From positions 1-64,000 of the forward strand of contig JBJFGS010000025.1 in NCBI GenBank assembly GCA_051892935.1: 64,000 nucleotides of DNA. Reading direction: 5' to 3'. The stretch comes from Candidatus Coprovivens sp. GTDB taxonomy: Bacteria; Bacillota_I; Bacilli_A; RF39; UBA660. Below are positions 5,734 to 61,990 of this stretch, one piece after another. The notes under the pieces are model-generated. The model searched no databases. It was not told the origin of the DNA and was given only the letters and a program-made list of their open reading frames with translations. Position numbers and translations under genes: made by a program. The first letter of the stretch is position 1; each line of letters begins with the position of its first letter.

Positions 5734-5810
5734 TGGTGTCCCCGAAGTGATTCGAACACTTGACCGTACGCTTAGAAGGCGTATGCTCTATCCAGCTGAG
5801 CTACGAGGAC
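5734..5810 (-). tRNA. tRNA-Arg (anticodon UCU)
   Basis: Reverse complement GTCCTCGTAGCTCAGCTGGATAGAGCATACGCCTTCTAAGCGTACGGTCAAGTGTTCGAATCACTTCGGGGACACCA folds as a cloverleaf with anticodon TCT and encoded CCA. Confidence 0.97.
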
Positions 5811-51907: not shown

Positions 51908-52810
51908 ATGAGCAACTTAGACAATAATATAAAAGAATTTCTAAAATATCTGTCTAATGAAAAAAGATATCCTAACACAACTATCGAAAGTTACAAAAGA
52001 GATTTAGATAATTATTATAGTTATATTACTTTAAAAAAAATAAACTACAAAGAAATAAATAAAGACGAAATAAGAGATTACTTAAAATACTTAGATGATT
52101 TAAAGTATTCAAAGACAACTATTTCAAGAATACTAAGTACATTAAGACATTTCTATTCATATCTTGTAATACATAAAAAAATAGAAACAAATAACTTTAA
52201 ATTAATAAGAAATCCTAAGAAAGAAAAAAAATTACCAAACTTCTTACAAGGAGATGAACTAGAAAAAATATTTGATACCATAAATTTAGATACACCATTA
52301 GGTATAAGAAATCGTTTAATAATAGAATTACTATATGCATCAGGTATCAGAGTATCAGAACTAACCAATCTAAAATTACAAGATATAGACTTAAATAATA
52401 AAGAAATAAGAATAGTTGGTAAAGGTAATAAAGAAAGAATAGTATATTTTGGAGAATATGCCCAAAAATATTTAAAAATGTACCTAGAAGAATCAAGAAA
52501 CATCTTACTAAACAATAAACAGTCATCAAATCTTCTAATTAATCATTCTGGAGAACCCCTAACTACTAGAGGAGTAGAAATGATAATAGAAAACATTGTT
52601 AAAGAAGCATCTATCAAACACAATATCTCTCCTCATTCCCTAAGACACACATTTGCAACAGATCTTTTAAATAACGGAGCAGACTTAAAAAGTGTTCAAG
52701 AACTTCTTGGTCACTCATCATTATCTACTACTCAAATATATACACATATTACAAACGAAAGATTAAGAAGCGTTTATTTGCAAACTTTTCCAAGGCAAAA
52801 AGAAAAATAA
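51908..52810 (+). CDS. xerC: Tyrosine recombinase XerC/CodV
   Basis: LYASGIRVSEL, GKGNKER, PHSLRHTFAT and LLGH..LSTTQIYTH motifs. Confidence 0.9.
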   Translation: MSNLDNNIKEFLKYLSNEKRYPNTTIESYKRDLDNYYSYITLKKINYKEINKDEIRDYLKYLDDLKYSKTTISRILSTLRHFYSYLVIHKKIETNNFKLIRNPKKEKKLPNFLQGDELEKIFDTINLDTPLGIRNRLIIELLYASGIRVSELTNLKLQDIDLNNKEIRIVGKGNKERIVYFGEYAQKYLKMYLEESRNILLNNKQSSNLLINHSGEPLTTRGVEMIIENIVKEASIKHNISPHSLRHTFATDLLNNGADLKSVQELLGHSSLSTTQIYTHITNERLRSVYLQTFPRQKEK

Positions 52811-52846: not shown

Positions 52847-53668
52847 ATGGAAACAAAGAATGGAAAGTTTAAAATAATATTAGGAATAATATTAGGTATA
52901 GTTATTGGTGTAGCAATAACTTATATTTTAGTTCATAATAACGACTCAAAAAACGAAAAAAATGAGTTACCACTAACACTTCAAGAATATAAAAAATCTC
53001 AAGAATACAAAGAAAATATTATAATTGAAGCATTTAAAGATTATTACACATCAAAAGGATTTGTAATGATTAGCGATGTCAAATCTTGGGATATAACAAT
53101 CAAAGAAGAAAAAGAAGAATATGTTATATTAGAAAATAAATATACTTGTAATGATAATAGCGGAAGTTGTATTTATGTACCCCAAGAAATAGAAAAAGAT
53201 GGTAATTACATTTTTACAATAAGAGCAAATGGCAAATACGAAAATTATAAATACAATATAACTAGTATCACATCAACAGATACTACTTCTTCAGCAACAA
53301 ATCCTGAAGAGCAAACACCAGCAGAATCAGTTCCTAATCCAGTAAACACTGAATTAGATTGTGAAACATACTCAAAATTACTTCAAGAATATTTAACAAA
53401 TAAAGGATTAATTTTCGTACCAAACCTTTCATCATTCAAAGCAGAATCATTTGAATATAAAGGATACTACCCAGAAAAGCCAGATGAAAAATTATATGAA
53501 GTAAAAATATCTTATTCTTGTTTAGACGGTAATTCTGATTGTGTTTACCAACCTCAAAGTGAAGACGATATTAATGGAATATATAATTTTTCAATGATAA
53601 TAACTATTACTGATGGAAAAATCGTTAATATCAACGGAAATATATTAAGTCAAGAATTAGTTAAATAA
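52847..53668 (+). CDS. Membrane-anchored protein with two tandem Cys-pair domains
   Basis: N-terminal TM; repeats Y.TSKG..YTCNDNSGSCIYVPQ and YLTNKG..YSCLDGNSDCVYQPQ separated by an S/T/P linker. Confidence 0.7.
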   Translation: METKNGKFKIILGIILGIVIGVAITYILVHNNDSKNEKNELPLTLQEYKKSQEYKENIIIEAFKDYYTSKGFVMISDVKSWDITIKEEKEEYVILENKYTCNDNSGSCIYVPQEIEKDGNYIFTIRANGKYENYKYNITSITSTDTTSSATNPEEQTPAESVPNPVNTELDCETYSKLLQEYLTNKGLIFVPNLSSFKAESFEYKGYYPEKPDEKLYEVKISYSCLDGNSDCVYQPQSEDDINGIYNFSMIITITDGKIVNINGNILSQELVK

Positions 53669-53706
53669 AAAGTTTATTAACTATTCTCTCATTTTTAAAG
53701 AAAAAG

Positions 53707-53735
53707 TTGACAAAGAAAAATAAATATGCTATTTT
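53707..53735 (+). promoter_or_regulatory. Sigma-A promoter of the leader and downstream operon
   Basis: TTGACA-N17-TATTTT with extended TG. Confidence 0.75.
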
Positions 53736-53742
53736 CTTATCA

Positions 53743-53833
53743 AGTGAGAGCACATAAGTTTATTAACGAGCTGTGCTGGGCGAAGAACCTACACGTATAT
53801 CGGAGTCACGAATGTTTTATTCGTGGCTTTTTT
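53743..53833 (+). ncRNA. Structured leader RNA motif copy 1 with intrinsic terminator (riboswitch/attenuator candidate)
   Basis: AGTGAG-[AGCACA..TGTGCT]-[GGG..CCT]-ACACGTATATCGGAGTCAC; terminator GAGTCACGAAT/ATTCGTGGCTT followed by Ts. Confidence 0.7.
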
Positions 53834-53878
53834 ATATCTTTAAAACACGAAGAAACAATAGAAAGAGAGGTGATACTT

Positions 53879-54007
53879 ATGATGTCAAAAAAAGACCTAT
53901 ACTTTAAAAAAACAAAAAAATTACAATTTATCGTACGATTTATTCCTCAGGCGGATATTATAACATCATTAAATATCACCCTCAAAGTAGGAATATCGTA
54001 CTCTTAG
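53879..54007 (+). CDS. Small leader ORF 1 (42 aa)
   Basis: SD GAGGTG; MMSKKDLYFKKTKKLQFIVRFIPQADIITSLNITLKVGISYS; the stop overlaps the start of RNA motif copy 2. Confidence 0.55.
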   Translation: MMSKKDLYFKKTKKLQFIVRFIPQADIITSLNITLKVGISYS

Positions 54008-54091
54008 TGAGTATGTATCAAAGCTACATAGGGAACAATAATTCCTACACGATTTATATCGGAGTCACATCTTTATATGTGACTCTTTTTT
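54006..54091 (+). ncRNA. Structured leader RNA motif copy 2 with intrinsic terminator
   Basis: AGTGAG-[TATGTA..TACATA]-[GGGAA..TTCCT]-ACACGATTTATATCGGAGTCAC; terminator GAGTCACAT/ATGTGACTC followed by T6. Confidence 0.7.
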
Positions 54092-54125
54092 GTTTCAAAA
54101 AATAAAAAAGAAAGGAAGTGCAAAA

Positions 54126-54263
54126 ATGAACTACGCAAAAGAAGATTTAAAATACTACAAAAAACAATTATACAGATACTTAAAAAAATACTATCAAGAT
54201 TATTTAGATTATTTGAAAGATTATTATGAATATAATTTAAATCTAAAATTAAAACGAAAATAA
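54126..54263 (+). CDS. Small Tyr-rich ORF 2 (45 aa)
   Basis: SD GAAAGGAAG; MNYAKEDLKYYKKQLYRYLKKYYQDYLDYLKDYYEYNLNLKLKRK. Confidence 0.6.
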   Translation: MNYAKEDLKYYKKQLYRYLKKYYQDYLDYLKDYYEYNLNLKLKRK

Positions 54264-54292
54264 AAATAATAAAGAAAAAGGAGGTAAACTAT

Positions 54293-55024
54293 ATGTGGAA
54301 ATTAGCATTAAACAATTTTATTAAGCCGTATAGAGAAGATAAAGAAGTAGAAGCTATTCTTTTAGTAGGTAGTTATGCAGTTGGTAATCAAAATGAATAT
54401 AGTGACATAGATGTATACATAGTATTAAACGATAATGCTAACTATCGCAAACGTGGTAACAAACTAGTAAATAATTACCTAATAGAATATTTTATCAATC
54501 CAATCCATAAAATAAAAGATTATATAAAAGAAGATAAACGAGGTCATGGTGGTAGTATGGCAAACATGTTATTAAATGGTCAAGTTCTATTAGATAAACA
54601 TGGAATAATAGAAAAACTAAAAGAAGAAGCACTAAAAGCAAAAGAAATACAACTAGAAAAAGATATTATGAAATACTATGCATGTTGGCATGCTTATGAT
54701 GAATACGAAGCAGCTATGTATCATAGCGAACTACAATACTATCTATGTTTAAAATACTTAGTAGATTGTTATCTATTTAATAATGGTTACGCAATGTTAC
54801 CAGAACAAAAAATAGAGCGTTTCTTTAAAGATCAAGAATATAGAGAAAAATACAATATCGGGAAATTCCCAAACAATAAATTTAATAACCTAGTAATTAA
54901 TTGTTTTGATAAACCATGTAAAAAGAATTTAAAAGTCTTATACGAATTTGTAATAGAAGACGGTAAATTCGATATAAATAATTTTGAATTAAAAAATAAA
55001 ATAGAACAAAAAAAGGAAGATTAA
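54293..55024 (+). CDS. Pol-beta superfamily nucleotidyltransferase domain protein
   Basis: LLVGSYAVG....SDIDVYIV motif and a third acidic residue in IEYF; helical C-terminal domain. Confidence 0.85.
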   Translation: MWKLALNNFIKPYREDKEVEAILLVGSYAVGNQNEYSDIDVYIVLNDNANYRKRGNKLVNNYLIEYFINPIHKIKDYIKEDKRGHGGSMANMLLNGQVLLDKHGIIEKLKEEALKAKEIQLEKDIMKYYACWHAYDEYEAAMYHSELQYYLCLKYLVDCYLFNNGYAMLPEQKIERFFKDQEYREKYNIGKFPNNKFNNLVINCFDKPCKKNLKVLYEFVIEDGKFDINNFELKNKIEQKKED

Positions 55025-55025
55025 A

Positions 55026-55604
55026 ATGGAAAAATTAAGACACGTCGAACCCTCTATCGAATTAAAAGAACAAGGTATAGACTACATAAACGAACATTTA
55101 TTATGTAACTCCGAAATTAATGGCTCCGGAAGTTTACACAAATACTTAGATAACTACGAAGAATGGCTAATTAAGTTAGAAAGAGATCGAAATTGTATTC
55201 CTAACGAAGAACGAGTTCCAGCTGAAACTTACTACCTTGTAAACGAAAGCAATAGAATTATAGGAATGATAAATATACGTCTAGTACTTAATGAAAGACT
55301 AAGAAAATGTGGTGGCCATATTGGCTATGGAATAAGACCAAGCGAAAGACAAAAAGGCTACAATAAAATAAATCTTTATTTAGGACTATTACGTTGTCAA
55401 GAACTTGGTATTGAAGAAGTCATCTTAGATTGTGATGCTATTAATCTAGGATCATCTCGTACAATGGAAGCCCTAGGTGGAATAAGAATAGATGAATACT
55501 ATAGTGAAGAAGAACAATCATTAATATGGAGATACCAAATAAATGTCAATAACGCAATAAATAGCTATAAAGAAATATATGAACCTAAAATATTAAGAAA
55601 ATAA
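55026..55604 (+). CDS. GNAT family N-acetyltransferase
   Basis: GGHIGYGIRPSERQKGY and N.GS..TME..GG motifs. Confidence 0.9.
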   Translation: MEKLRHVEPSIELKEQGIDYINEHLLCNSEINGSGSLHKYLDNYEEWLIKLERDRNCIPNEERVPAETYYLVNESNRIIGMINIRLVLNERLRKCGGHIGYGIRPSERQKGYNKINLYLGLLRCQELGIEEVILDCDAINLGSSRTMEALGGIRIDEYYSEEEQSLIWRYQINVNNAINSYKEIYEPKILRK

Positions 55605-55623: not shown

Positions 55624-56082
55624 ATGGTCATTCAAAAAGCAACCAAAGAAGATTTCCTTGGTATACACAAAATATTTCAGGAAGTGCACGATCACCACCT
55701 AAATGGTACTATAAATACATTTAAAGATATTGATCCATTTACAAAAGAAGAATTACTAGAATCCTTAAAAGATAAAAATACATTTATTTTAATAGCTAAA
55801 GAAAAAGAAATAGAAGGTTTCATTCTAGCAACAATAATAGAAAAAGAAGGAAGACATACTAAATTAAAAAAAACACTACATATAAATACAATAGGTACCA
55901 AAAAAGATTCACAAAACAAAGGAATAGGGACATTACTAATAAATGAAATAAAAAAGATTGCTAAAGAAAATAAATGTGATAACATTAATTTAAGTGTATG
56001 GGCATTTAATGATAATGCCATTAAATTTTACAAACACATAGGATTTAACAATAAAATAATAAATATGGAAATAACATTGTAG
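55624..56082 (+). CDS. GNAT family N-acetyltransferase
   Basis: QNKGIGTLL and N..AIKFY...GF motifs. Confidence 0.9.
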   Translation: MVIQKATKEDFLGIHKIFQEVHDHHLNGTINTFKDIDPFTKEELLESLKDKNTFILIAKEKEIEGFILATIIEKEGRHTKLKKTLHINTIGTKKDSQNKGIGTLLINEIKKIAKENKCDNINLSVWAFNDNAIKFYKHIGFNNKIINMEITL

Positions 56083-56104: not shown

Positions 56105-57085
56105 ATGAACGCAATAGAAGTAAAAGGCCTATCCAAAAAATTCAGAGTAAAACAAAAAGAAAAAGGTCTAATGGGAAGCTTAAAATCAATATTTAAACCA
56201 AAATATAAAGAAAAACTCGCCGTAAATAAAATAACCTTTACTATTGAAAAAGGAGAGATACTAGCATTCATTGGTCCCAATGGAGCCGGTAAATCAACTA
56301 CTATAAAAATGTTAACTGGTATCTTATTTCCTACAAAAGGAGAAATATCAGTAATGGGAATAAATCCTCAAAAAAATCGAAAAGAATTATCTTATAAAAT
56401 AGGTACAGTATTCGGTCAAAAAGAACAACTATGGATCCATTTAACACCATACGATAACTTCAAATTCTTTGGTGCCATCTACGACATCCCTGAATCAGTA
56501 GTAGAAAAACGTATTGAAGAGTATAAAACTATCTTCGAATTAGATGAATTTATAAATACCCCAGTAAGAGGATTATCCTTAGGTCAAAGAATGATCTGTG
56601 AAATAGTTGCATCTTTAATTCACGAACCAGAAATTCTTTTCTTAGATGAACCAACCATCGGTTTAGACCCAGTAGTTAAAGAAAAGATAAGAGTATTCAT
56701 CAAAAGATTAAATAAAGAAAAGAAAACTACTATCTTCCTAACTAGTCATGATGTAGGAGACATCGAAAAATTATGTAAAAGAGTTATCATCGTAAACGAT
56801 GGTACAATAGTATTAGATGATTCAATGGAAAACTTAAAATATCACTACTTAAACAAGAAAATTGTTGAAGCAAAAATGAATACTAAAATCAATTTAGATG
56901 ATGTAGAAGGAATTACTATCTTAAAAGACAAAGACTATAACTTAAAATTAGAAGTAGACTTAACTAAAAAAACTATCAGTGATGCTATAAAACTATTAGA
57001 TCCAGATAAAATAATTGACATCAATATTTCAAATACACCATTAGAAACAATTATAAGTTCTATCTATAAAGGAAATAAAAAATGA
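56105..57085 (+). CDS. ABC exporter ATPase
   Basis: GPNGAGKS, VFGQK.QLW, LSLGQRM, FLDEPTIGLD and TSH motifs. Confidence 0.92.
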   Translation: MNAIEVKGLSKKFRVKQKEKGLMGSLKSIFKPKYKEKLAVNKITFTIEKGEILAFIGPNGAGKSTTIKMLTGILFPTKGEISVMGINPQKNRKELSYKIGTVFGQKEQLWIHLTPYDNFKFFGAIYDIPESVVEKRIEEYKTIFELDEFINTPVRGLSLGQRMICEIVASLIHEPEILFLDEPTIGLDPVVKEKIRVFIKRLNKEKKTTIFLTSHDVGDIEKLCKRVIIVNDGTIVLDDSMENLKYHYLNKKIVEAKMNTKINLDDVEGITILKDKDYNLKLEVDLTKKTISDAIKLLDPDKIIDINISNTPLETIISSIYKGNKK

Positions 57086-57873
57086 AAAAATACTTATATA
57101 TAATGAAAACTACATTCAAAGACACCTTACAATATTCATCAAGCTTAATATTTAGGTTTATCGGCTTTGCTGTAGTTATGTCAGTATTAATTAGTTTATG
57201 GAACTTCTTATATAGTGAACCAGGTAGTACCATTAACGGCTATACATTTAACCAAATGATTTGGTACTTATTATTAGCCGAAATAATCACCTTCGGTAGC
57301 GGTAGTAAAGTAGCTACTAATGAAATCAGAAATACTATTAAAAGCGGAAACATTGCTTACCAAGTAACAAAACCATATAACTATATCAGTTTTACTATCT
57401 GTAAATTCTTAGCAGATACTATAATAAGATTCTTCTTATTCTTAATAGTTGCTGTTATATTAGGTTTAATCTTTGCAGGTCCAATAGAAAACTTTAACTT
57501 AATCTCGTTAATACCAGCTACTACAGTATTCTTACTAGCTATTCTTATAACAGGTATGATAAAGATATTAGTCAGCTTATCTGCCTTCTGGGTAGAAGAC
57601 TCTAATCCATTCCAAATGGTATATAGTAAGATAGTTTTAATATTTGGCGTATTATTCCCATTAGAAATGTTTCCAAAAATCATTCAAACTATTATAAAAT
57701 TCACTCCAGTATATGGAGTAAGCTATGGACCTGCTAAACTGATTATTAATTTCAACTCTAGTATTTTAACAAACGTATTATTATCTCAAGTAATTACAAT
57801 TATAGTGGTAACAATATTATTAAAAATCGTATACGAAAGAGGGGTGAAGAAATTAAATGTTAACGGCGGTTAA
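57082..57873 (+). CDS. ABC-2 family permease (DUF990-like)
   Basis: Multi-TM; IKSGNIAY..KP and LFPLEMFP motifs. Confidence 0.85.
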   Translation: MKKYLYIMKTTFKDTLQYSSSLIFRFIGFAVVMSVLISLWNFLYSEPGSTINGYTFNQMIWYLLLAEIITFGSGSKVATNEIRNTIKSGNIAYQVTKPYNYISFTICKFLADTIIRFFLFLIVAVILGLIFAGPIENFNLISLIPATTVFLLAILITGMIKILVSLSAFWVEDSNPFQMVYSKIVLIFGVLFPLEMFPKIIQTIIKFTPVYGVSYGPAKLIINFNSSILTNVLLSQVITIIVVTILLKIVYERGVKKLNVNGG

Positions 57874-58651
57874 AGGAAACTTAAAAATAATGTTTCTTAG
57901 TATCAAGTACAACTTAATGAAATGTATGGAAAACAACGTAGCATTTGCTACCTCCATAATAATGATGATTTTCAATAATGCTACATTCATTATCCAGTGG
58001 TTAACTATATTTGCAATAAAAGAATCAATAGGTGGATATACTTTGAATAACGTCATGTTATTCTGGGCTATCTCTAGTGGAGCTTATGGCCTAGCACATA
58101 TCTTCTTTAATGGCGTAAACAAACTACCAGAATATATCGAAGAAGGTAAATTAGATGCCTTCCTAACAGTACCTAAAAATCCATTATGTTATGTAGCAAC
58201 ATCCAGTACTGAGCCATCAGCTTGGGGAGATTTAATATATGGCTACATCGCTTTAATAATATTTAACTTTAGTATTAAAAACATTTTATTATATACATTG
58301 TTAATTATATCAGGAGCATTGATTTATGCTAGTACAATCTGTATCTTCAATACATTAACATTCGTATTCTATAAATCTAGTGATTTCACAGAAGTTATAA
58401 AATCAGCATTATTAAATTCATCTTTATATCCAGATGTAATATTTGAAAGAGCAGTTAAAATTATCTTCTTCACCTTAGTACCTAGTGGATTTGCTTGTTG
58501 GCTACCAGTACATTTAATTATGAGTTTTAATCCAATTAATTTATTAATATTAATCGTAACTACCATTATCTACGTATCATTAGCATTCATCTTATTCCAT
58601 AAAGGATTAAAACACTATTCTTCAAGTAACTTGATGGGAGCAAGAAGTTAA
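57857..58651 (+). CDS. ABC-2 family permease (DUF990-like)
   Basis: Multi-TM; IGGY, GKLDAFLT.P, YP..IF and GLKHYSS motifs. Confidence 0.85.
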   Translation: MLTAVKGNLKIMFLSIKYNLMKCMENNVAFATSIIMMIFNNATFIIQWLTIFAIKESIGGYTLNNVMLFWAISSGAYGLAHIFFNGVNKLPEYIEEGKLDAFLTVPKNPLCYVATSSTEPSAWGDLIYGYIALIIFNFSIKNILLYTLLIISGALIYASTICIFNTLTFVFYKSSDFTEVIKSALLNSSLYPDVIFERAVKIIFFTLVPSGFACWLPVHLIMSFNPINLLILIVTTIIYVSLAFILFHKGLKHYSSSNLMGARS

Positions 58652-58676: not shown

Positions 58677-59177
58677 ATGATATTTTTAAAAAAAGCTAAT
58701 CTCGAAGATATCGAAGAAGAATACAATTTTCTAAGTAAAATGCCTAGTATAAACGGTTTTGAAAACGAATATGAAAACCTTCCTAGAGAAAATTTTGAAC
58801 AACATATCAAAGCATTAATTGATCACTCAGAAGGAAAAAAACTAAAAGAAGGATACGTACCAGATACATACTTTTTCCTATGGGATGATAATAAAATAGT
58901 TGGAGTATTCAAACTAAGACATTACTTAAATGATTGGTTAAGAAAAAATGCAGGACACCTAGGTTACGGAATATTACCAGAAGAAAATGGTAAAGGTTAT
59001 GCGACTAAAGGTCTAGCTCTTATGAAAAAAGAAGCAGCTAAGATAATAAAAGAAAACGAAATTTATTTATCTGTTCATAAAGACAACAAAGCATCATTAA
59101 AAGTTCAACAAAAAAATGGTGCTTACATAGTAAAAGAAACTGAAAATGAATACTTAACAAGAATAAAAATAAGATAA
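58677..59177 (+). CDS. GNAT family N-acetyltransferase
   Basis: AGHLGYGI..EENGKGYAT and NKASLKV..KNG motifs; paralogue of 55026..55604. Confidence 0.9.
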   Translation: MIFLKKANLEDIEEEYNFLSKMPSINGFENEYENLPRENFEQHIKALIDHSEGKKLKEGYVPDTYFFLWDDNKIVGVFKLRHYLNDWLRKNAGHLGYGILPEENGKGYATKGLALMKKEAAKIIKENEIYLSVHKDNKASLKVQQKNGAYIVKETENEYLTRIKIR

Positions 59178-59359
59178 AAAGACTTTGATAAAAGTTAATT
59201 TTATAGTTCTAAAAAAAAAATTTATAAAGTAAATGTAAAACTAAAAAACAAAAGTATTTATTAAATGTAAAGTTTAAGAAAAACAAGAGTTTATGTCTCT
59301 TGTTTTTACTTTTTATGATAAAATATCTTTGTGACATAATATGCGAAGGAGGAATCATT

Positions 59360-61990
59360 GTGCACAAATATGTATATTTATTTACTGAAGGTAATGCAGA
59401 TATGCGAAACTTATTAGGTGGTAAAGGTGCAAACTTAGCAGAAATGACAAATATTGGTCTTCCTGTTCCTCAAGGTTTTACAATTACTACTGAAGCATGT
59501 ACTCAATACTATGAAGATGGTAGAGAAATCAACGAAGAAATACAATCTCAAATTAATGAGTACATCGTAAAAATGGAAGAAATTACTGGAAAGAAATTCG
59601 GAGATAAAGAAAATCCTTTATTAGTTTCAGTAAGATCAGGTGCTAGAGCTTCAATGCCTGGTATGATGGATACAATCCTTAACTTAGGTTTAAACGAAGA
59701 AGTTGTTGAAGTATTAGCAGAAAAATCAAATAACCCAAGATGGGCTTGGGATTGCTACAGAAGATTTATTCAAATGTATTCAGATGTAGTTATGGAAGTC
59801 GGCAAAAAATACTTTGAAGAATTAATCGACAAAATGAAAGAAGAAAAAGGTGTTAAACAAGACGTTGAATTAACAGCTGAAGATTTAAAAGAATTAGCTG
59901 CACAATTTAAAGCCGAATACAAAGCAAAAATAGGTACTGACTTCCCAAGCGATCCAAAAGAACAATTAATGGGAGCTATTAAAGCAGTATTCCGTTCATG
60001 GGATAACCCAAGAGCAAATGTATATAGAAGAGATAACGACATTCCTTATTCATGGGGAACTGCTGTTAACGTTCAATCAATGGCATTCGGTAACATGGGT
60101 GATGATTGTGGTACAGGTGTTGCATTTACTCGTGACCCAGCTACTGGAGAAAAAGGCCTATTTGGTGAATTCTTAACAAACGCTCAAGGTGAAGACGTTG
60201 TTGCAGGTGTTCGTACACCAATGAAAATAGCTGAAATGGAACAAAAATTTCCAGAAGCATTTGAACAATTTAAAGAAGTATGCAAAACTCTAGAAGAACA
60301 TTATAGAGACATGCAAGACATGGAATTTACTGTAGAACATGGTAAATTATATATGCTACAAACTAGAAATGGTAAAAGAACTGCTCAAGCAGCATTAAAA
60401 ATTGCTTGTGATTTAGTAGATGAAGGAATGCGTACAGAAGAAGAAGCTGTAGCAATGATTGATCCAAGAAACCTAGATACATTACTACATCCTCAATTTG
60501 ATGTTAAAGTATTAAAAGAAGCTAAACCAATAGGAAAAGGTTTAGGAGCATCTCCAGGTGCTGCATGTGGCCAAATCGTATTTACAGCAGAAGATGCAGA
60601 AAAATGGGCAGCAAATGGTAAAAAAGTAGTTCTAGTTAGACTTGAAACATCTCCAGAAGATATAACTGGTATGAAAGCATCTCAGGGTATCTTAACAGTA
60701 CGTGGTGGTATGACTTCACATGCTGCAGTAGTAGCACGTGGTATGGGTACTTGCTGTGTTTCTGGATGTGGCGAAATCATAATGGATGAAGCAAACAAGA
60801 AATTTACATTAGCAGGTAAAACATTCAACGAAGGAGATGAAATATCTATCGATGGTACAACTGGTAACATTTATGATGGCATTATTCCTACAGTTCCTGC
60901 AACTATAGCCGGAGAATTTGGTCGTGTTATGGAATGGGCAGACAAATATAGAACATTAGGAGTTAGAACAAATGCTGACAATCCAACTGATACTGCAAAA
61001 GCAATCGAATTAGGAGCAGAAGGCATTGGATTATGTCGTACAGAACACATGTTCTTCGAAGAAGAAAGAATACCAGCAATAAGAAAAATGATTCTTGCTG
61101 ATACTGTAGAAGAAAGAGAAAAAGCTTTAGAAGCATTAATTCCTTTCCAAAAGGGTGACTTCAAAGCTATGTACAAAGAATTAAAAGGATTACCAATGAC
61201 AGTTCGTTACTTAGATCCACCTCTACATGAATTCTTACCTAAAGAAGAAGCAGATATCAAAGCCCTAGCTAAAGATATGGGTGTTACCGTTAAACATTTA
61301 AAAAACAAATGTGATGAATTACATGAATTCAATCCAATGATGGGACATAGAGGATGCCGTCTAGCTGTTACTTATCCAGAAATCGCTAGAATGCAAACAA
61401 GAGCTTTAATGGAAGCAGCTATTGAAGTAAAAGAAGAAGAAGGATACGATATTGTTCCTGAAATAATGATTCCACTAGTAGGAGAAGTTAAAGAATTAAA
61501 ATTCGTTAAAGACATAGTAGTAGAAACAGCAGAACAAGTTAAGAAAGAAAAAGGTTCAGACATGGAATACCATATTGGTACTATGATAGAAATTCCAAGA
61601 GCAGCAATTACTGCAGATGCTATTGCAAAAGAAGCAGAATTCTTCTCATTCGGAACTAACGACTTAACTCAAATGACATTCGGTTTCTCACGTGATGATG
61701 CAGGTAAGTTCCTTGGATCATACTATGAAACTAAAATATATGAACAAGATCCATTCGCAAGAATTGATCAAACAGGTGTAGGAGAACTTGTTAAAATTGC
61801 AGTAGAAAAAGGAAAATCTACAAGACCAAATATTAAACTTGGTATTTGTGGAGAGCACGGTGGAGATCCATCAAGTGTTGAATTCTGCCATAATGCTGGA
61901 TTAACATATGTTTCTTGCTCACCATTTAGAGTTCCTATTGCTAGATTAGCTGCTGCACAAGCCGCAATCAAAGCAAAAAATAATAAATAA
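59360..61990 (+). CDS. ppdK: Pyruvate, phosphate dikinase
   Basis: GTG start after AAGGAGG; LGGKGANLAEM, GGMTSHAAVVAR, GLCRTEHMFF and GICGEHGGDP motifs. Confidence 0.99.
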   Translation: MHKYVYLFTEGNADMRNLLGGKGANLAEMTNIGLPVPQGFTITTEACTQYYEDGREINEEIQSQINEYIVKMEEITGKKFGDKENPLLVSVRSGARASMPGMMDTILNLGLNEEVVEVLAEKSNNPRWAWDCYRRFIQMYSDVVMEVGKKYFEELIDKMKEEKGVKQDVELTAEDLKELAAQFKAEYKAKIGTDFPSDPKEQLMGAIKAVFRSWDNPRANVYRRDNDIPYSWGTAVNVQSMAFGNMGDDCGTGVAFTRDPATGEKGLFGEFLTNAQGEDVVAGVRTPMKIAEMEQKFPEAFEQFKEVCKTLEEHYRDMQDMEFTVEHGKLYMLQTRNGKRTAQAALKIACDLVDEGMRTEEEAVAMIDPRNLDTLLHPQFDVKVLKEAKPIGKGLGASPGAACGQIVFTAEDAEKWAANGKKVVLVRLETSPEDITGMKASQGILTVRGGMTSHAAVVARGMGTCCVSGCGEIIMDEANKKFTLAGKTFNEGDEISIDGTTGNIYDGIIPTVPATIAGEFGRVMEWADKYRTLGVRTNADNPTDTAKAIELGAEGIGLCRTEHMFFEEERIPAIRKMILADTVEEREKALEALIPFQKGDFKAMYKELKGLPMTVRYLDPPLHEFLPKEEADIKALAKDMGVTVKHLKNKCDELHEFNPMMGHRGCRLAVTYPEIARMQTRALMEAAIEVKEEEGYDIVPEIMIPLVGEVKELKFVKDIVVETAEQVKKEKGSDMEYHIGTMIEIPRAAITADAIAKEAEFFSFGTNDLTQMTFGFSRDDAGKFLGSYYETKIYEQDPFARIDQTGVGELVKIAVEKGKSTRPNIKLGICGEHGGDPSSVEFCHNAGLTYVSCSPFRVPIARLAAAQAAIKAKNNK

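Follow-up and report, generated by a model that had tools for sequence, protein, structure and literature searches.

The stretch of 64,000 nucleotides (nt) analyzed here, referred to as the window, comprises positions 1–64,000 of contig JBJFGS010000025.1 from Candidatus Coprovivens sp. It contains two copies of one structured RNA element on the + strand (53742–53836 and 54005–54092, with a spacing of 263 nt). Each copy overlaps its own intrinsic terminator and a single promoter-like site is located ahead of both. The element is a real, conserved structured RNA. It forms a four-way junction of 65–90 nt with the joining strands G, ACA and GAG, and its structure, conservation, terminator overlap, leader position and gene context can be read directly from the sequences. 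Each copy is probably a member of a widespread class of small-molecule transcriptional ON riboswitches outside Rfam release 15.

The first-pass annotation of this region had described tandem elements about 263 nt apart behind a promoter TTGACA-N17-TATTTT. This arrangement was found again base for base and by a consensus scan. The sigma-70-like promoter (53707–53735, + strand; TTGACA, 17 nt, TATTTT) agrees with the consensus at 10 of 12 positions, with a TG preceding the −10 box. The scan detected no other promoter-like site on the + strand of 53300–54500. The transcript likely starts at about 53742, which places aptamer 1 at the 5' end of the mRNA. Both copies share the order (N)GTGAG, P2, P3 (GGG..CCT), ACACG, TATATCGGAGTCAC, a hairpin and a T-run, with a short A/U-rich linker between ACACG and CGGAGUCAC. 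P2 is formed by AGCACA/TGTGCT in copy 1 and by TATGTA/TACATA in copy 2. Five of the six pairs are changed on both sides with pairing retained, as the annotation had noted, and in each copy the P2 loop has T at its start and AGC at its end. The assignment of GGAGTCAC as the conserved 5' arm of each terminator also holds at both copies. The match exceeds chance: in the 1.8-Mb genome the core pattern is present at these two sites only, and the reversed control gives none.

Aptamer 1 (53742–53810, + strand) scores 77.5 bits with covariance model R1, which was built from 30 same-genus copies, and 70.7 bits with a second model, R2; RNAalifold yields the same helices. P1 is formed by 53744–53747 and 53806–53809 and is followed by the single joining base J1/2 (G53748). 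P2 (53749–53754/53772–53777) continues through an internal loop of UAA (53755–53757) and GAGC (53768–53771) into P2b (53758–53760/53765–53767). P3 (53778–53780/53788–53790) is connected by J3/4 (ACA, 53791–53793) to P4 (53794–53795/53801–53802), and J4/1 (GAG, 53803–53805) leads back to P1. Aptamer 2 (54005–54069, + strand; R1 59.6 bits, R2 54.6 bits) consists of P1 (54007–54010/54065–54068), J1/2 (G54011), P2 (54012–54017/54025–54030) with a loop U...AGC, P3 (54031–54035/54042–54046), ACA (54047–54049), P4 (54050–54051/54060–54061) and GAG (54062–54064).

Terminator 1 (53802–53836, + strand) has a 13-bp stem (53802–53830) followed by a U-tract. Within its 5' arm lie the final G of P4, J4/1 and the P1 3' strand. 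Terminator 2 (54061–54092, + strand) has a 10-bp stem (54061–54086) and a U-tract, and overlaps three parts of aptamer 2, namely the 3' strands of P4 and P1 and the J4/1 strand between them. These stems are the two terminator-like sites found by the consensus scan, compared with 0.2 expected from shuffled sequences. In minimum free energy (MFE) folds of the full leaders the terminator hairpins form, and P2 and P3 stay intact.

Across homologous copies the consensus is 5'-(A)A-GUGA-G, P2 (6 bp) with UAA, the P2b hairpin and GAGC, P3 (GGG...CCU), ACA, P4 (CG...CG), GAG, UCAC-3'. P4, located between ACA and GAG, and P2b, the extension of P2 past the conserved internal loop, were revealed by distant copies. 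In an alignment of 30 same-genus copies with a hand-drawn structure, 99.5% of the cells pair and double-sided changes are present in 10 of 16 pairs. Alignment A6, which comprises 124 sequences from many taxa, was compared with 500 shuffles and with slid pairing partners. Here 98.0% of the cells pair (80.0% when shuffled, 28–52% with a slid partner), double changes are found in 13 of 18 pairs of the five helices and the covariation score is 0.514 (0.175 when shuffled). None of the 500 shuffles reaches any of these three values. Each P2 pair occurs in 3–5 pair types. The covarying stems proposed from the two window copies are therefore strongly supported by their homologues.

RNAalifold on A6 recovers the same five helices including P4, and the model that made this alignment did not contain P4. 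Altogether 149 unique copies from many genera were collected, of which 145 were parsed; four truncated or decayed copies were left unparsed. In the parsed copies, pair 2 of P4 is G-C in 129 and A-U in 11, whereas pair 3 is U-A in 60, A-U in 42, C-G in 7 and A·A in 23. A one-position offset of the partner lowers P4 pairing to 1–39%. The joining strands are nearly invariant: all 145 copies have G at J1/2, and 144 of them have GAG at J4/1. The pairs that border the junction are conserved as well. P1 is GUGA/UCAC in 141 of 145 copies, with one compensatory change to GCGA/UCGC and one U·G change. In the compensatory copy the terminator does not use the last P1 bases. This would fit P1 being held constant by three demands at once: its own pairing, the terminator arm and perhaps ligand contacts. 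An alternative pairing of the 5' GTG with the CAC of ACAC had also been proposed. It was rejected on the pair counts and on RNAalifold, since the last C of ACAC forms the first pair of P4. One further copy (L013:1717–1781, + strand, the second copy in genome G016) is decayed. It scores 38.9 bits and has mutations in both the ACACG and the CGGAG core, yet its terminator is retained; it is likely a pseudo-aptamer that is now constitutively terminating or inert.

Taken alone, the window has two copies and its covariation amounts to one comparison, as a duplicated terminator region would also show if the structure were a by-product of recent duplication and had no regulatory role. The first-pass annotation had named a lack of homologues with conserved structure or context as the outcome that would point to a simple duplicated terminator. 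Building a covariance model and searching with it, as had been suggested, yielded homologues in many genera. With 149 unique copies, covariation in 13 of 18 pairs and two window copies that represent two old subtypes, both kept across the genus, the duplication explanation is refuted and retains practically no probability.

The core pattern is present in 15 of 26 same-genus genomes, mostly as a pair about 250 nt apart. R1 detects the element in 17 of 150 further genomes, drawn one per genus within the family of the window, and in 24 of 149 family genomes of an order-wide sample. The class sample beyond the family gave one weak match with R1 (25.6 bits). A phylum sample searched with R2 gave none in 149 genomes, and the genomes listed for that sample all belong to the same class. 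A pattern scan of 185,579 species genomes returned at least 120 stretches, of which 80 loci were taken forward; R1 confirms 75 matches in 63 of these. The remaining 17 loci lack R1 confirmation and are chance matches, e.g. in Streptomyces, Nitrospira and Planctomycetales records. Many of the confirmed loci are from metagenome-assembled genomes labelled 'uncultured Bacilli' or 'uncultured Tenericutes', one of them Candidatus Coprovivens. Confirmed Clostridia are Clostridium tagluense, C. bowmanii, Clostridium sp. ZS2-4, Tissierella simiarum, Alkaliphilus transvaalensis and Thermoanaerobacterium saccharolyticum. Five of these cultured Clostridia genomes contain 1–3 copies each. An even sample of Clostridia shows the element in 10 of 149 other genomes scored. 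The carriers, many of them gut and soil bacteria, range from small-genome Bacilli to Clostridia with 2–5 Mb. A blastn search of a plasmid collection with two copies of the element gave no match.

The overlap of aptamer and terminator is conserved along with the fold. In the genus of the window the 5' arm of the terminator consists of GGAGUCAC and the following bases. In other genera and in Clostridia the arm starts further 5' and takes in the whole 3' strand of P4. The terminator arm always includes 3' strands of the aptamer, so that aptamer and terminator are mutually exclusive. For 141 of 148 copies, MFE folds of the 3' part pair GAGUCAC with downstream sequence. Pairing between the 14 nt that precede a T-run and the final 16 nt of the aptamer has an energy of −7 kcal/mol or lower in at least 115 of 143 copies, compared with 26 for a shuffled arm; the value of 115 is a floor, because the T-run finder often stopped inside the 3' arm. 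Since the 3' strands of P4 and P1 lie in the 5' arm of the terminator, aptamer formation should prevent termination, which would make the element an ON switch. Both a GTGA/TCAC pairing that rivals the terminator and an ON switch in competition with it had been anticipated for the window. The former corresponds to P1, whose 3' strand lies within the terminator arm, and the latter is supported by the conserved overlap. Furthermore, −10-like hexamers cluster 6–9 nt upstream of the aptamer start among the 149 unique copies. A conserved, covarying aptamer with conserved unpaired bases, an expression platform that is mutually exclusive with it and a position in 5' leaders, co-oriented with varied and functionally related genes, are all found, as expected for a riboswitch.

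A co-oriented open reading frame (ORF) of at least 60 amino acids (aa) starts within 350 nt after 124 of 146 validated unique copies. For the others the ORF is farther away (13), an ORF on the opposite strand comes first (5) or the contig ends (4). Clustering of the operon proteins places GNAT acetyltransferases in 41 loci, ABC ATPases in 39, permeases in 34 (usually two per locus), S-adenosylmethionine (SAM) methyltransferases in 7 and MFS pumps in 4, besides several small clusters. Nucleotidyltransferases are present in 13 loci, as far as could be told all from the genus of the window. Among 114 unique first genes, Pfam assigns at least 32 to GNAT domains, 21 to ABC_tran, 8 to NTP_transf_2, 6 to MFS_1, 3 to PNP_UDP_1, 2 to Peptidase_S66 and 2 to methyltransferases. 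The connection to modification and efflux genes drawn from the window alone has therefore turned into a coherent context of GNATs, ABC-2 exporters, MFS pumps and nucleotidyltransferases. An NCBIfam comparison was restricted to 71 GNATs, as a tally of all first genes is dominated by ABC models. At E ≤ 1e-8 it gives PseH-like (23), RimI (19), ArsN1 (17), SpeG (16), AAC(6')-Ie (9), PaiA (7), RimJ (6) and RimL (3). The closest solved relatives of one GNAT from Clostridium bowmanii are AAC(6'), SpeG and diamine acetyltransferases.

This gene context bears on the reading of the ~90-nt terminated transcripts as a trans-acting small RNA present in two copies, with read-through being incidental. The strong terminator of each copy and the position of copy 1 right after the promoter would suit such an RNA. 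The close co-oriented genes, the recurrence of their classes and the constant overlap of the terminator 5' arm with conserved aptamer helices, which a plain small RNA would not need, make it highly improbable.

In the window, the putative operon starts with a 243-aa nucleotidyltransferase (54293–55024, + strand; NTP_transf_2, Polbeta fold) with weak NCBIfam matches to MntA, HalB and Lnu, all below cut-off. It is followed on the same strand by two GNAT N-acetyltransferases, one of 192 aa (55026–55604, Acetyltransf_3) and one of 152 aa (55624–56082, Acetyltransf_1; RimI- and PaiA-like, below cut-off). Next are a DrrA-like ABC transporter ATPase of 326 aa (56105–57085; TIGR01188 with 227 bits, below the cut-off of 312 bits) and two ABC-2 permeases (57082–58651, i.e. 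57082–57873 and 57857–58651; ABC2_membrane_6). A third GNAT N-acetyltransferase of 166 aa (58677–59177, Acetyltransf_3) is the last gene. After a gap of 122 nt a pyruvate phosphate dikinase is encoded (59300–61990, + strand), which probably belongs to a separate transcription unit; such a gene adjoins the operon in 9 loci in all (cluster K4). Directly upstream of the leader, a 273-aa protein (52847–53668, + strand) has neither a Pfam nor an NCBIfam match, and it is preceded by a XerC/XerD-type tyrosine recombinase (51908–52810, + strand).

In nine gut Bacilli loci the first gene encodes a protein of ~140–220 aa that has no Pfam match (cluster K5; K5-type loci with this gene first after the aptamer are L098–L100, L105, L107, L119, L189 and L198). 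The AlphaFold model has a mean pLDDT of 79.5. Its top seven structural matches are to the C-terminal DNA-binding domain of Spo0A (1lq1, 1fc3), with TM scores of 0.73–0.75 on the target and E-values of 0.016–0.14; these are the only matches with E < 1. K5 proteins thus appear to be stand-alone Spo0A-C-like factors under RNA control and, judging from the predicted fold, the element probably gates a small transcription factor in these genomes. Profiles of the unknown protein clusters K5 and K9 gave no match among PDB sequences, as the one row with an E-value of 0.043 is noise. For K9, the protein atlas gave no lead (all scores ≤0.82).

Two or more copies of the element are present on 30 of 116 locus-strands. 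On 9 of them the gap is 50–83 nt, and these are true tandems with two terminators. Gaps of 153–225 nt occur on 13 locus-strands and mostly represent the arrangement of the genus of the window. On the remaining 8 the gap is 333–1056 nt, and 5 of these have an ORF of 136–288 aa right behind the first copy. In the window, the consensus scan shows no promoter-like site between the two copies, so the operon needs read-through at both terminators. Small ORF 1 (53879–54007, + strand; 42 aa) is located between the aptamers and has a strong Shine-Dalgarno sequence. The Shine-Dalgarno sequence, the ATG and the frame are kept in same-genus loci, in which indels are multiples of three. Its stop codon TAG shares its G with aptamer 2, where this G opens P1, and several genomes have a frame that continues into the aptamer. 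Translation of small ORF 1 and folding of aptamer 2 may be coupled. Small ORF 2 (54126–54263, + strand; 45 aa, rich in Tyr and Lys, with a Shine-Dalgarno sequence) is the first frame after terminator 2. Of 12 same-genus loci, 6 have a homologue of 45–50 aa with a Shine-Dalgarno sequence in the corresponding position. Of the architecture in the first-pass annotation, the tandem copies, terminators and gene context stand, while P4, P2b, the wide distribution and the two small ORFs of the leader had been missed.

In the genus of the window, a small ORF with a strong Shine-Dalgarno sequence whose end reaches the 5' edge of aptamer 2 or lies within it, ahead of genes resembling drug-resistance genes, is what a ribosome-dependent leader-peptide attenuator sensing translation inhibitors might look like, the conserved structure then being a set of alternative hairpins. 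Several points speak against this reading. Aptamer 1 begins at the predicted transcript start, which leaves no room for a leader ORF, and at aptamer 1 no conserved short ORF is present upstream of or within the hairpins. P2 covaries through many unrelated sequences with no codons conserved inside the element, the junction strands are conserved as bases and not as codons, and copies in other genera and in Clostridia lack such an ORF. A leader-peptide attenuator is accordingly very unlikely. Antibiotic-responsive attenuators of this type have reportedly been identified by Term-seq. The element shares with them the terminators in leaders of resistance-like genes; it differs in that no peptide is conserved inside it and that RNA structure and junction bases are conserved instead.

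RNA-level data are limited to one metatranscriptome contig of 155 nt (53789–53943, one mismatch, depth 3.1). It crosses terminator 1, extending 48 nt on one side and 107 nt on the other, a weak hint at read-through. In a search of sequencing runs, the share of the sampled words found in a run was at most 0.27.

The element has no counterpart among the 4227 models of Rfam 15. The whole window was searched at gathering scores and 53650–54300 at E ≤ 10. No Rfam 15 family matches the window element at gathering score, and the 14 matches in 53650–54300 at E ≤ 10 are at chance level (snoRNA, miRNA etc.) and far below gathering scores. This agrees with the initial impression that the T-box, purine, ykkC, guanidine-IV, fluoride, c-di-nucleotide, RAT and ANTAR consensus do not fit. 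The only match of the window at gathering score is a tRNA gene (5737–5810, − strand). Full-text literature searches retrieved no description of the motif, although supplementary alignments and motif lists (PMC9788692, PMC5737381, PMC11109978) could hold it. The element is thus absent from Rfam 15, and prior knowledge in specialist hands is possible; PMC9788692 mentions an unpublished domain-by-domain screen by its authors.

Several known RNAs were compared with the element. T-box leaders are long and contain a specifier loop and a tRNA-binding T-box antiterminator; this class was rejected, as there is no T-box match at E ≤ 10 and the element has 65–90 nt. A resemblance to the decoding site of small-subunit rRNA, the hairpin ribozyme or the tRNA cloverleaf was dropped, as helix lengths and loop positions differ and Rfam gave no match. 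ON riboswitches with the 3' strand of P1 in an intrinsic terminator include the adenine pbuE, guanidine-I ykkC and fluoride crcB types. Like these, the element is a leader aptamer whose closing helix shares bases with the terminator arm, and the activated genes would remove or export the sensed compound. It has a different fold and different conserved bases, P1 is only 4 bp long and P4 also competes with the terminator. Tandem arrangements are said to occur in glycine riboswitches and, for TPP, in Bacillus anthracis. The window likewise has two complete aptamer-terminator units in series, from which a steeper response is expected. Unlike those cases, the units in its genus are old, diverged subtypes with a conserved small ORF between them, and in other genera the copies are 50–83 nt apart or separated by a full gene.

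Spermidine-sensing variants of SAM-I reportedly act as OFF switches on polyamine synthesis genes. The element resembles the SAM-I type in combining a four-way-junction aptamer with a terminator. It differs in its ON geometry and in the acetylation and export genes downstream, and SAM families are not among the Rfam matches at E ≤ 10. According to PMC10853860, the spermidine riboswitch is a SAM-I variant, which shows that polyamines can be riboswitch ligands. The guanidine-IV and Gd4v RNAs are described in PMC9788692 as two hairpins joined by a pseudoknot that act as ON switches on a Rho-independent terminator and are linked to GNATs and exporters. Gd4v is enriched in the gut and is mostly located upstream of a transaminase and MATE pumps (PMC9788692). 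On that description, the likeness includes ON logic, the terminator, the association with GNATs and exporters and the gut carriers. The element is nonetheless a four-helix junction closed by P1, which sets it apart from Gd4v by description, and it precedes ABC-2 exporters, GNATs and nucleotidyltransferases.

Several observations weigh against a riboswitch for a single small molecule. P1 has only 4 bp and is almost invariant, so that its covariation support is thin, and part of the copies were gathered by a pattern that fixes the P1 bases. The regulated genes are heterogeneous and roughly one in three first genes lacks a Pfam domain; consequently, no single ligand follows from the gene context. 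The GNATs spread over at least 8 NCBIfam models with no model cut-off seen to be reached. At locus L082 the element precedes an unrelated-looking metabolic operon, and the sole RNA evidence is the 155-nt contig with a depth of ~3, for which DNA carry-over is possible. In addition, all structural results fit equally well to a protein- or macromolecule-dependent antiterminator, i.e. the same structure and antitermination logic with a junction stabilized by a protein, a tRNA or the ribosome, and the heterogeneous genes could follow a general stress signal. Such a factor has low, though appreciable, probability. The operon clustering shows no regulator gene common to all loci, and distant lineages carry the element, so the factor would have to be universal there. 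The conserved bases gather in the junction, as in small-molecule pockets. Lastly, the element has no Rfam family at E ≤ 10, a comparison for which Rfam's content of protein- and tRNA-bound leaders was unchecked.

The copy at L082 (G011:C3, aptamer at ~266–330) is of a third subtype, with P2 formed by TTCAAG/CTTGAA, and is located before an HMGL-like synthase. The synthase is followed by a short-chain dehydrogenase/reductase (SDR), a PAP2 protein, an F420-ligase-like protein, a DUF2207 protein and a CCA/poly(A)-polymerase-like gene. No other locus shows a comparable gene setting.

The small-molecule riboswitch remains the favored explanation, where we infer direct binding of a ligand and, with it, the term riboswitch. 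In the default state the much stronger terminator would form and transcription would stop. A small molecule most likely binds in the junction and stabilizes it; P1 and P4 would then hold the bases shared with the terminator, and RNA polymerase would read on. In the window, one promoter would feed two such switches in series. Switch 1 would gate the 42-aa ORF, and switch 2 would gate the 45-aa ORF and the operon. Expression of the operon would need both switches to be on, and the response should thereby sharpen.

Given the regulated genes, our best guess for the signal is a toxic, amine-bearing compound that is acetylated or exported by the cell, which is probably the case. Candidates would be a polyamine, a biogenic amine or an amine-bearing antibiotic (aminoglycoside-like or an aminoacyl-nucleotide compound). 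Polyamines and biogenic amines may rank somewhat ahead of the antibiotics, as the carriers are anaerobic and SpeG and diamine enzymes are among the closest acetyltransferases of solved structure. A resistance theme of the microcin-C type, which according to PMC9239234 comprises GNATs and S66 and S51 peptidases, is kept as one option only: just 2 loci have S66 and just 3 have S51, and a penicillin-binding protein follows in one of these. In its most specific form the proposal is tentative, somewhat short of probable: a new four-way-junction riboswitch class would sense a toxic amine and switch on a detoxification regulon in Clostridia and small-genome gut Bacilli. Members of this regulon might be acetyltransferases, nucleotidyltransferases and exporters of the ABC-2 and MFS types; many gut Bacilli would add a stand-alone Spo0A-C-like DNA-binding protein, a transcription factor under riboswitch control that extends the regulon.

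The hypothesis is directly testable at the bench, because the element is present in cultured species that are non-pathogenic (C. tagluense, C. bowmanii, T. saccharolyticum, A. transvaalensis and T. simiarum). If it is a riboswitch, its aptamer fold would be new among natural RNA sensors, and probably its ligand as well. An RNA that activates genes for amine detoxification or drug modification would, if this is true, be a natural biosensor for the compound. For Clostridia and uncultured gut Bacilli, a riboswitch would mean a common signal for many unannotated acetyltransferases, ABC-2 exporters and small proteins.

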